A stretch of DNA of 64,000 bases. Source: Saccostrea echinata. Its lineage: Eukaryota. The stretch lies in contig NW_026889778.1 in assembly GCF_033153115.1 (NCBI RefSeq), positions 8,184,001 to 8,248,000 of the forward strand, given 5' to 3'. This document shows positions 28,450 to 35,764 of this stretch, piece by piece. The position numbers and the translations under genes are program-made. Under the pieces are notes generated by a model. That model had not been told where the DNA came from and did no database searches. It saw only the letters and a program-made list of their open reading frames with translations. Numbering within the stretch: position 1 is the stretch's first letter; every line of letters begins with the position of its first letter.

Positions 28450-29546
28450 CTAGACAGGCTGTGCCGTAACAACATTGTCTCTATGTATAACCTCGTCATA
28501 AGATGGCGGTTGGGTTGTGATCACTGCTGGTGGACTGTTCTCTTCATTGTCTGACCTTTTTCGGATCTCTGATTTCTGATCTTTAGCGGTACGTTTCTTG
28601 TTTGTAGTAGAAAGTGGTGGATGCGCCGGATTTACGCCATTGGCGGCACAAGGAGGGCTCCCAGAATTCGACTGTACTTGAACTTCAATCTGACGTCTTC
28701 GATCCAGTTCGTATCTCCTATGGGGTCTTCGGTGTCCTTCACTGACACCGTCCGCAACCAAGAAACAAATACACCAATTACACCCTTATAAGAAGAATTA
28801 AATAGCGTTTGTCAATGTTATTTTGTAACAGCTAAGGTCAATATTGATGATTTAAAATTATAGCATACAATGTAATCCTCTATTAATTAAAAAAAATTTA
28901 GAAACTTTGAATGGAAAACTACCCCTTTCCTGTGTACACTGACATCTGAAATGGCGAATAATTTCGGTAAGGTATTATTGTTTTATGCCGATGTTCAGCA
29001 GCTTCTAATTTCTTGAGAGGATAAGTGGTTGGCCTTAAGTTAAGTGAAAGCTTAATAGTAAGATTTTACCCAGATCTGAATTGTTGCTTTAGATGTTAAT
29101 TAAAAAAAACCCAAAACATTTCCCTGTTTAAATTCAGATTATTTATCAATCTGTTAAGTTATTGAACAGTTCTTCAATACAATATGTAAGATAAAAAAAT
29201 AATTACCTGTTGTCTCATTTGGTATAGAATTTGTTTCGTATGTGGAAGGTTCTAAATTCGACAACGGTGTGTTATCAAAAAAAGTTTCTTTAAAAAGCGC
29301 GCGACTAAACCTCTTACCATGTCCAGGTGAATTGTCTCCACAGCATCCGTCATTGCCTCCGCAACATTCGTAACAGGCATGTAGGCAGTGACAGCAACTG
29401 CAACCAAAGCAGTCGGAGTCACCACATTCGCAACAATCACAGTCACCACATTCACAACAATCCTCACCACATTCACAACAATCACAGTCACCACATTCAC
29501 AACAATCCTCACCACAATCACAGTCACCACAATCACCGTCAGACAT
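28450..29546 (-). CDS. Small Cys/Asp/Glu-rich (metallothionein-like N-terminus) protein with PPSYDEV tail, copy A
   Basis: Exon 1 29318-29546 (MSDGDCGDCDCGEDCCECGDCDCCEC...SPGH; G|GTAAG phase-1 donor, alternative phase-1 donor at 29207). Last exon 28450-28784 (GCNWCICFLVADG...RRYELDRRRQ...QPPSYDEVIHRDNVVTAQPV*). Clear paralogue of 33851-35764. Confidence 0.75.
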
Positions 29547-29629
29547 GGCTACATGAAAGTGAAGTACACAATGAAGACGTTCCTTGATATTAGCACAGAC
29601 TCAAAACTGCAATGAAGAGCCAAAAACCA

Positions 29630-29675
29630 TATTTATATACGCTCTCTATATAGATATCGTTCAGTGATTGGACAA
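29630..29675 (-). promoter_or_regulatory. Candidate TATA box and CCAAT box upstream of Cys-rich gene A
   Basis: Minus-strand TATATAAAT at ~29631-29639 and CCAATC at ~29666-29671, about 85-125 nt upstream of the ATG at 29546. Confidence 0.4.
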
Positions 29676-30066
29676 TTTTTATGACGGTATATTTCCTTCT
29701 TCCTTAGTAATTTAAGGATTTTAGTTCCAATCTGTTTACAGAACAGCCTCAAGGAAGAAACTACTCAGTAACACCAACATTTACATTCAAGAGAACTTAT
29801 ATTTATCAGTATAAAGTGTTTTCCCAATATTTTTCTTCATATTTCGTTGCATACCTGATACAATGGAGAATATCAGTTAATGTAATCAGTCTACCTGAGT
29901 TAAGATTAACAATCTCCACCCGTAAGCATTTATATTCCTTATTTGTTTTAAGGTAAGACTTGCGACCCATTAAAATTGTACACATGTCATGCATTAATTT
30001 GTTTGAGAAGACTAGCTTTATCATTTACTATGATTTTAAAAGATATTGCCGGTACCTCCTTTTTTG

Positions 30067-32780: not shown

Positions 32781-33740
32781 TTTTATGCCCCCGTGTCGAA
32801 GATTCGGGGGTATATAGTTTTTACTCTGTCCGTCCGTCTGTCTATTGTCTGTTGTGACAAGATCTTTATTTGGGTACCATAATATTTGACCTCTTGACCT
32901 TGACCTTGGAGTTTGACCCACATTTGCCAAATTTTATGACACTTTTACCTTGGTCATACCTTTTGAACAGTTGGTGATTGGGCTTTCACATGTGTATTCC
33001 TTATGATAAGACCTTCCTTTAGATACCAACAACTTTGACTTTCATATTCCACATGTGTATTTCTTGTGACAAGATCTTTCTTTGGGTACCATAATATTTG
33101 ACCCTTTGACCTTGACGTCTGACCTACTTTTGAAAAAAAAACGTTAACCTTGGCTATAACATTTGAACAGTTGGTACTAGGGCTTTCCTGCTTCACATGT
33201 GTATTTCTTGTGACAAGGCCTTCCATTGGATACCACCAATATTGACCTTTTGACCTTGACCTAGAAGTTCTTTTGAAAAAACGTTAACCTTGGCTATAAC
33301 TTTTGAACGATTGGTGTTAGGGCTATCATACTTAACATTTATAATCCCTGTGACAATACCTTTCCTTGGAAACTAACACCTTTGACCTTGACCTAGGAGT
33401 TTGTCTTACTTTGGAAAACTTTAACCTTGGCCATAACATTTGAACGATTGGCGCTACGGCTTTCATATTTCACATGTGTATTTCTTGTGAGAAGGCCTTA
33501 CCTTGGGCACCATTAATTTTGACCATTTGACCTTGGCCTTGATGTTATTTTTGAAAAACTTTAAGCTTTTCCATATCTATTCAATGGTTGCTGCTAGGGC
33601 TTTTATATTACACAGGGTTATTCCTCGAGACAAGAACTTACTTTGGGTACCAACATATTTGATTTGCATTTGAGAAAGTTTAACCTTTGCTATTAGTTGC
33701 CATACAGGGTCATCAGTGTTTCACAAACACATCTTGTTTT
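32781..33740 (+). mobile_element. HINE-like element, second copy of the same family
   Basis: Same 5' hairpin and microsatellite, internal repeats and 3' terminus as 30067-30928. Confidence 0.8.
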
Positions 33741-33850
33741 TTCTTTTCATAAAACAGAGGAACTGAACATATCTGAAGACCCCCCCCCTCCCCCGCCCCC
33801 TTTTAATAAAATGTTTAATATTGCAAAAGTCGGTTATTCAAAGTATCGTT

Positions 33851-35764
33851 CTACACAGGTTGTGACGTAACAACAGTGTCTTTATGTATAACCTCGTCAT
33901 AAGATGGCGGTTGAGCCGTAATTGCTGCTGGTGAAATATTCTCAGTCTCTGATGGTTGTGGCGTCTCTGGTTCCTGATCAACGGTGTGTAGCGTAGAATA
34001 AGCTGGATCCGCCGGGTTTACACCATCGGCGGCACTCGGAAGGTTCATTGTGTTTTGTCCTTTAACCTCCATGTGACGTCTGCGTTCCAATTCGTATCTC
34101 CTCTGATTTCTTCGTCTTCGGCGATCTTCACTGTCACAACAACTGTCATCTTCCGATACCAGAAAACATATGCACCAGTTACATCCTAAAAAGGAAAAAA
34201 AGTGTTCTTTAATATCAGGATATTCCGTTACTGTTATATCTTTATGCATTTTCGATATAAATGATCAGAAGTTAATTATAAATCAAGCCATGTACTATGT
34301 TTTTATACTCCATCAAAGAAATGGAAATTTTGACTGGAAACGTACCTCCCCCATGTCTACTGCCGTCAACACTTACATTATCTGAAATGGAGAATGATTT
34401 TAATAAGGTTTTATTTCTTAATGGAGCAAAATTAATTGATTTTCAACTCCTTTTTATGCCCCAGTATCGAAGATTCGGGGGTTTATAGTTTTTGCCCCGT
34501 CCGTCTGTCTGTCTTTCTGTGTGTTTCTCCGCAAAAACTTTAACCTTGCCCATAACTTTTGATTGGTTGAAGCTATGACTTTCATATTTCACATGTGTAT
34601 TCCTTGTGACAAGACCTTTCTTTGGGTACCATTATATCTGACCTTTTGACCTTGTAGTTTGACCTACTTTTGCAAAAATTTATGAGACTTTAGCCTTGGC
34701 CAAAACTTTTGAACAGTTGGTGCTAGGGCTTTCATACTTCACATGTGTTATCCTTGTGACAAGTCCTTTCTTTAGATACCAACAACTTTGACCCTTTGAC
34801 CTTGACTTTGGAGTTTGACCTACTTTTGGAAAGCTTTAACCTTGGCCATAACTTTTAAACGGTTGGTGCTAGGGCTTTCATACTTCACATATGTAATCCT
34901 TGTTACAAGACCTTCTTTTGGATACAATTGTAATCCATTGACCTTGGCCTTGGAGTTTGACTTTTGAAAAACTTTAACCTTGGTCATAACATTTGAACGA
35001 TTGGTGCTTCGGCTTTCACATGTCACCTGTGTTTTTCTTGGGAGAAGGCCTTTCCTTTAGCACCATTATTTTGACCATTTGACTTGATCTGATGTTTGAC
35101 ATACTTTTGAAAAAACTTAAACCTTTTCCATAGCGATTCAATAGTTGCTGCCAGGGCTTTCATATTTCAGTTATATTCCTAGAGACAAGACCTTACTTTG
35201 GGTACCAACATATGTGATTTGCATTTGAGAAAGTTTAACCTTTGCTATAAGTTGCAATGCGGGGGCATCAGTGTTTCACAAACACATCTTGTTTATTTAG
35301 TAATTAGCCTTGAAAACTTGATAGTAAGCGTTTGCCAAAATCTTGAGCATTGTATGATTATGATGTAAATATTGCATAAATCTTTTAAATCGTTTAGTGT
35401 CTTCTGTCGAAGTTCAGAACTACTGATATTTTTTCCCTACCTTATTGCATGTAAACAATTCATCAACGCAATATGCAATACAATTGTCTCCATAAAGAAT
35501 TTGAATATTTAGTATTATCCATGAATATGGAAGGTCTTATGGTCGGTTACATCCAATTCTTATATGAGACTTTAAAAGAAGAGTGACATTATCCTTAAAA
35601 ATCGTAAAAACAAAATACTCACCGTTACCATGAACATGATCGTCCCCGCAACACGTGCCGTCACTTCCGCAACATCCGTCATCATCGCAACTAAAGCAAC
35701 CAGAATCACAGCAATCGTCCCCGCAATCACAGTCGCACCCATCCATATCCCCACAGTCAGACAT
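33851..35764 (-). CDS. Small Cys/Asp-rich protein with PPSYDEV tail, copy B (~170 aa)
   Basis: Exons 35623-35764 (MSDCGDMDGCDCDCGDDCCDSGCFSCDDDGCCGSDGTCCGDDHVHGN; G|GTGAG), 34346-34381 (DNVSVDGSRHGG; phase 1-1) and 33851-34185 (GCNWCICFLVSEDDSCCDSEDRRRRRNQRRYELERRR...QPPSYDEVIHKDTVVTSQPV*). The last exon has the same 335-nt coding length as in copy A. Confidence 0.78.
34451..35294 (+). mobile_element. HINE-like element, third copy, inside an intron of Cys-rich gene B
   Basis: Same termini and internal repeats as 30067-30928. Confidence 0.8.

Follow-up and report, generated by a model that had tools for sequence, protein, structure and literature searches.

A tandem pair of spliced oyster genes encoding cysteine-headed proteins with a conserved C-terminal PPxY motif: candidate adaptors for NEDD4-family ubiquitin ligases

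What could be the task of a protein that opens like a metallothionein and closes like a ubiquitin-ligase adaptor? The question is raised by two neighbouring genes, here called A and B, at positions 28,450 to 35,764 of a 64,000-nucleotide stretch of the oyster Saccostrea echinata (assembly GCF_033153115.1, contig NW_026889778.1, positions 8,184,001 to 8,248,000), the whole of which was analysed and is referred to as the window. Its DNA is AT-rich and animal in character. The original prediction, made from the letters of the window, had described a tandem pair of unrecognised proteins, each with a cysteine-rich acidic head, an arginine-rich segment and a tail carrying PPSY, a form of the PPxY (PY) motif. 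Both are real, spliced genes of an unnamed family, and they belong to none of the families tested. Judging from sequence, we give about even chances that their products are tethered to membranes and serve there as adaptors for ubiquitin ligases of the NEDD4 family.

Two spliced genes of an unnamed family

Every motif named in the original prediction was found in both genes at its place on the minus strand, and the joined coding exons (Table 1) reproduce two database proteins exactly: P0003 (187 amino acids) from the two exons of gene A, and P0001 (170 amino acids) from the exons of gene B, which include an in-frame microexon. The identical records are the S. echinata uncharacterized proteins LOC133194925 and LOC133194446. 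All introns of both genes are GT-AG and in phase 1.

The predicted splicing between the cysteine-coding and the PPSY-coding exon is borne out by contigs that join the two with splice-type ends. The contigs come from six sequencing runs, none recorded as RNA; their RNA nature is guessed, and the joined form obeys the splice signals. In gene A, the 533-base intron is skipped with CT..AC ends by a contig in three of four runs (X1, X3 and X4, from two studies), and the X1 contig, 445 letters long with 0 other letters, spans the distance from the cysteine exon to the PPSY codons. The evidence for gene B comes from X2 and X4, which are one sample: two contigs, 798 and 479 letters long, match the cysteine exon with no other letter. 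Their coordinates fit the three exons of gene B with room for a microexon of exactly 36 letters, an arithmetic in which contig records of equal length and depth are treated as one record.

The microexons were missing from the original account. Those of genes A and B are paralogous by blastn. Run X2 holds a more divergent allele of gene A, in which the microexon is 10 letters longer and thus, at 33 nucleotides, in frame (as read from contig loose ends), and the gene A orthologue of S. cucullata, P0007, carries an in-frame microexon peptide. The sample shared by X2 and X4 contains both microexon-skipping and microexon-including forms of gene A.

On the 5' side of gene B, contigs of X2 and X5 match 35623-35770 with 0 other letters and then extend 207 and 96 letters into an upstream exon; blastn of the two upstream regions returned no upstream exon shared by genes A and B. 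All ten oyster records begin at the same methionine, which speaks against an upstream coding exon, and both genes of a second pair (see below) have an in-frame stop between the acceptor and the start codon. Judged by these starts and stops, genes A and B probably lack an upstream coding exon.

Three rounds of protein searches gave 3, 6 and 12 proteins. The relatives comprise A- and B-types of S. cucullata and three tandem-numbered records of Ostrea edulis, as well as relatives with weak scores (E 9e-4 to 5.8) from Pinctada imbricata, Mytilus coruscus and two further assemblies, together with a third Saccostrea type. The weak-score relatives share the whole layout and align over their full length with the oyster group in hhalign (probability 99.7 over 151 columns, inflated by low-complexity cysteines). 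The third Saccostrea type corresponds to two further loci, the second pair, 4.4 Mb away on the same contig, with three coding exons and phase-1 introns. The S. echinata genome thus has four family loci, and O. edulis is represented by three records. Within the second pair, the middle exon of one gene (L010) is present in many copies within an intron, and the end of the middle exon of the other (L011) is tandemly repeated.

A profile search with the last exon among 1.84 billion representatives gave six matches. Three were known members, two were fragments of family members from metagenomes, and the sixth was a repeat protein without relation to them. Several candidates were rejected: P0013-P0016 are long, unrelated repeat proteins that match over 23 positions, and of the three metagenome sequences that passed among 369 pattern matches, two, L035 and L036, are GC-rich frames open by chance. 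Another locus, L003, matched weakly (E 0.27) and contains two stops.

As the original prediction had it, the family is not recognisable as any described family with known function in the libraries searched. Pfam gave 0 families for four single exons, only sub-threshold DUF3915 (E 0.043) and TMEM52 (E 1.6) for eight aligned members, and only sub-threshold TMEM51 (E 0.1) for seven further members. The 11 matches among PDB sequences (E 2-3) were non-significant, ten of them being to the C-terminal region of the sodium channel Nav1.7, and the ESM Atlas had no usable match for P0001 or P0008 (for P0008, all template-modelling scores were below 0.4). No description of the family was found in the open literature searched, a scope outside which lie subscription journals and supplementary expression tables that may list the LOC numbers.

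The conserved tail and a possible role as ligase adaptor

We compared 13 full-length proteins spanning four named genera (Saccostrea, Ostrea, Pinctada and Mytilus). In the alignment of 13 rows, no columns are invariant except the Q, P, P and Y of QPPxY. The predicted conservation of PPSY thus holds in the form of PPxY, which is the most conserved element and occurs in all 13 proteins, 15-31 residues from the C-terminal end; by chance it appears in about 1% of 20000 shuffles per protein. All 13 also have the longer pattern PPxY[DEA][DE], and 12 have a flanking [VI]-x-[TS]-x-QP; a further [VI][TS]xQP close to the C-terminus is likewise seen in 12. We regard it as quite likely that the PY motif is functional. 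Between the A and B paralogues, the ratio of nonsynonymous (dN) to synonymous (dS) substitution is about 0.3 for the tail (0.11 / 0.36) and the aromatic patch (0.26 / 0.97) and 0.6 for the spacer (0.37 / 0.63), all rough values from 27-42 codons each.

Two other motifs that had been proposed as shared features are less widespread. The endosomal sorting signal YxxPhi is present in only 6 of the 13 proteins, all with valine at Y+3; the other seven have alanine, and YEEA replaces the signal in Ostrea, Mytilus and the third Saccostrea type. The arginine block RRYEL, taken as RxYE[LV], is limited to eight proteins, all of them Saccostrea A/B or Ostrea. Neither motif therefore defines the family.

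The head region is made up of 22-36% cysteine, 19-30% aspartate plus glutamate and 0-6% lysine plus arginine, and each protein has 17-32 cysteines, the number and spacing of which vary even between paralogues (17 vs 31). It is closed by a short aromatic-cysteine patch, present in every full-length aligned row and usually followed by CC and arginines; the CC is absent only in the two A-type proteins, P0003 and P0007. The best 19-residue hydropathy ranges from 0.46 to 1.05, with no window above 1.05 in any of the 13 proteins, in agreement with the predicted absence of a long transmembrane helix. An AlphaFold2 model is disordered apart from helices at 81-101 and 155-159, with a predicted local distance difference test (pLDDT) score of 48.6 and a predicted template-modelling (pTM) score of 0.14. 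The second-pair gene L010 has lost the PY motif (QPSSY) and the aromatic patch as well, as if the two worked together, in this one case.

Taken as an adaptor, the protein would act as follows. It would be cytosolic, as suggested by the absence of a signal peptide and by the in-frame stop just before the start codon of the second-pair genes. The aromatic-cysteine patch, the CC and the following arginines would hold it on the inner face of the membrane, probably by S-acylation, in the manner of known anchors that combine cysteines with basic residues. Such tethering, with acylation as its presumed means, seems to us slightly favoured. The PPxY(D/E)(D/E) tail would then bind the WW domains of a WW-HECT ligase, and once many single PY tails were tethered or clustered, they would activate the ligase, so that neighbouring membrane proteins would be ubiquitinated and sent to endosomes or lysosomes. 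The few lysines would spare the adaptor from being consumed. The head would either take up Zn, Cu or Cd or link copies of the protein to one another, and the choice between these two is the weakest step.

WW and HECT matches are adjacent at four loci of the genome (C9 40.75-40.77 Mb, C54 63.86-63.87, C37 0.62 and C28 13.2). Soluble PY proteins are reported to be poor activators of these ligases unless tethered or polymerised (PMC5892558), and this need for tethered or clustered motifs would give a reason for a single-PY protein with a membrane patch and a cross-linkable head. Lysine makes up 28 of 1945 residues (1.4%), with K/(K+R) of 0.23, in 11 proteins counted without the near-duplicates P0005 and P0010, compared with 5.6% and 0.54 in three other open reading frames of the window. 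There are 1-6 lysines per protein, and in 10 of the 11 a lysine-free run takes up more than half of the length. Lysine deserts are described as enriched among disordered proteins of the ubiquitin system (PMC10169902), and the scarcity of lysine would fit an adaptor that avoids its own ubiquitination.

The same scarcity counts against the view that the protein is a substrate, that is, a short-lived cysteine-rich scavenger of metals or oxidants with the PY motif as its own degron, since a substrate needs acceptor lysines. One PY motif close to the C-terminus, a disordered model and the lack of any recognisable cargo-binding domain in the Pfam searches would all suit a substrate. However, this view would leave unexplained both the patch, which is conserved, and the pair of VTxQP motifs, and we consider a substrate role improbable. 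We give still less credit to a structural protein of the keratin-associated or cornified-envelope kind, cross-linked by disulfides in a barrier layer and with a tail of minor importance. Keratin-associated and SCYGR names are borne by three members, P0008, P0005 and P0021, but they track composition, and no such Pfam family matches even these proteins. Moreover, the PY tail is the best kept part and the cysteine repeats are kept less well, and there is no signal peptide for a role in shell or byssus.

Several observations weigh against the adaptor role. Each protein has one PY motif only, and P(S/T)AP is found in 0 of 13. The genome has 25 WW matches, and PPxY can also mark a substrate or bind WW proteins that are not ligases. 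The strong acidity of the head (19-30% D+E) argues against its lying on the membrane. The lysine control consists of three membrane or signalling reading frames, and the family members are related, so that the contrast does not test independence. The links to Pinctada and Mytilus have the weak scores given above, and the profile match in their support is the inflated one. No relative from Crassostrea or Magallana was returned by the protein and profile searches, for which search sensitivity is the sole explanation offered. When the complex between the tail and a WW domain of the S. echinata genome was predicted without alignments, the score of 0.26 lay under the mark of 0.34 and speaks neither for nor against the role.

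Known proteins resemble the family in parts. NDFIP1/2 and yeast Bsd2 span the membrane with several helices and carry multiple PY motifs. Set side by side from their commonly known features, they share with the oyster proteins a PY motif followed by acidic residues and the proposed role of ligase recruiter or activator, and differ in that the oyster proteins have one PY and no window above hydropathy 1.05. Shisa-like proteins, TMEM51 and TMEM52 have, in their familiar architecture, a similar cysteine-rich front, CC with basic residues and a PY tail, but the oyster proteins have neither signal peptide nor transmembrane helix, and the Pfam hints cover the tail or fall below threshold. LITAF/SIMPLE and CDIP1 are alike in size (about 160-200 amino acids), in a disordered arm with PPSY and in having cysteines and a short hydrophobic stretch without a spanning helix; the oyster PY tail, with its trailing acidic residues, resembles the PPSY of LITAF, which is reported to bind the WW domains of NEDD4 and to act in targeting to endosomes (PMC5142333). 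In the oyster proteins, however, the order is reversed, with the cysteine head first and the PY motif C-terminal instead of N-terminal. They also lack the two CxxC knuckles around a helical anchor, gave 0 matches to this Pfam family among 8 + 7 members, and, compared with LITAF, have 17-32 cysteines instead of a four-cysteine zinc site and no P(S/T)AP.

Besides an MGD-CDCG head, a metagenome protein (L037) has a PLAC8 domain and repeats of XYPPX. It shares the start MGD..CDCG.CDCGDC with the family, ahead of the domain that it has in common with PLAC8 and cornifelin (PF04749, E 2.6e-9). Its match to the family covers only 24 low-complexity columns, and PLAC8 was found in 0/7 and 0/8 members. 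The same start on an unrelated PLAC8 protein suggests that the head may be a portable or convergent module.

Metal binding by the cysteine head

The original prediction had called the head metallothionein-like. This holds for cysteine content, as the head, with many CxC, CC and CxxC motifs, lies within or above the cysteine share of 15-30% given for metallothioneins (PMC7826182); it does not hold for the domain pattern or for upstream metal-response elements. None of the 13 proteins fits the mollusc patterns alpha, beta1, beta2, beta3 or gamma strictly, and two fit beta1 if spacers may hold cysteine (patterns from PMC7826182), in a test that included no true metallothionein as control and left the delta pattern outside. 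Cysteine number and spacing differ widely among members, and the C-terminal half has no cysteine cluster, unlike the metallothionein layout with its C-terminal beta1 domain. The Pfam family PF00131 matched no family protein, but as it also matched nothing in the genome or the controls, this blank carries no weight. Upstream TGCRCNC cores number 0 in 4.3 kb for gene A, 1 in 6.2 kb for gene B and 0 in about 4 kb for each second-pair gene, compared with 12 in the 64-kb window, the distances being counted without mapped transcription start sites. The oyster proteins also differ from mollusc metallothioneins, with which they share cysteine share and CxC/CC motifs, in their acidic head with almost no lysine, their cysteine-free PY tail of 70-100 amino acids and their total length of 144-199; most bivalve metallothioneins are reported to have 66-78 amino acids (PMC7826182). 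By the published cysteine patterns, the protein is not a metallothionein.

These tests lower the case for family membership and leave the chance of metal binding where it was. With 17-32 cytosolic cysteines, which would be reduced and free, the head can probably bind metal. The PY adaptors Bsd2 and NDFIP1 are known for metal-dependent control of transporters. It is therefore conceivable, if unlikely, that metal is the main business of the protein, the head being loaded with Zn, Cu or Cd as thiolate clusters and the PY tails clustering, whereupon the ligase would route the loaded protein to lysosomes or remove metal transporters. The high cysteine share and the reported activation of these ligases by clustering (PMC5892558) would favour such a sensor or carrier; the failed metallothionein patterns, the variable cysteines and the scarcity of TGCRCNC cores speak against it. 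Somewhat less likely again is a metal-gated switch that combines both roles, in which metal would cross-link tethered copies through their heads, the clustered PY tails would fire a NEDD4-family ligase, and the loaded protein or transporters would go to lysosomes.

Features of the window and significance

The gene features and their surroundings are collected in Table 1. Three copies of an element, each about 850-950 bases long and containing units of about 140-150 bases, are present: two between genes A and B and one in the first coding intron of B. The element looks like a non-autonomous transposon. The paralogous receptor genes sit in a duplicated segment, the copies of which lie 18.7 kb apart.

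Table 1. Coordinates of gene features, neighbouring features and the second gene pair (positions of the window unless a contig is named)
Feature	Position	Strand	Evidence or remark
Gene A, coding exon 1, holding the start codon and an acidic head of Cys/Asp/Gly	29318..29546	-	joined to last exon gives P0003; contig cover 29317-29505 in 4/4 runs
Gene A, microexon, 23 nucleotides, frameshifting in window allele	28923..28945	-	AG and GT ends; skipped by matching contigs
Gene A, final coding exon, with the GCNWCICFLV patch, RRYELDRRR, spacer, QPPSYDEV, VTAQPV, stop	28450..28784	-	translation; splice joint in 3/4 runs
Gene B, exon holding the start codon (35764) and the acidic Cys head, its acceptor immediately upstream of 35770	35623..35770	-	translation; X2 and X5 contigs
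Gene B, in-frame microexon, 36 nucleotides (DNVSVDGSRHGG)	34346..34381	-	needed for P0001; AG/GT ends; room for exactly 36 letters by contig coordinates
Gene B, final coding exon, with GCNWCICFLV, CC, RRRRRNQRRYELERRR (predicted to be helical), spacer, QPPSYDEV, VTSQPV, stop	33851..34185	-	translation; helix 81-101 in low-confidence model
Element of about 850-950 bases, three copies	30067-30932, 32780-33743, 34451-35298
Ankyrin-repeat gene(s), scattered exons	~5900-24640	-	one exon Pfam-confirmed
32-base tandem array	~21300-22400
Repeat, probably a widespread element in transcripts	36770-36940		very deep cover by many contigs, 4/4 runs
Intronless rhodopsin-family receptors (7tm_1), paralogous	42094-43368, 60852-62075	-	DNA ~85% alike
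NIT nitrate/nitrite-sensing domain, then guanylate cyclase domain	45507-47580	+	NIT E 2.7e-12
Second gene pair, L010	G000:C29:3716465-3720004
Second gene pair, L011	G000:C29:3797520-3801903
Metagenome protein with PLAC8 domain	L037:450-1811	+

Although Pfam has no model for the family, none of its relatives has a solved structure and the automatic names mislead, it is kept in oysters, pearl oysters and mussels and has been repeatedly duplicated. If its members are PY adaptors, their layout, with the cysteine head first, no spanning helix and the PY motif last, would be new among the adaptors compared. If the head also senses metal, it would link metal load directly to the turnover of membrane proteins. 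Oysters are known for extreme accumulation of zinc and copper, and the metal-gated switch, if true, would make one polypeptide both a metallothionein-like sensor and an adaptor for a ligase, and would provide a path into the metal granules of these zinc- and copper-accumulating animals.

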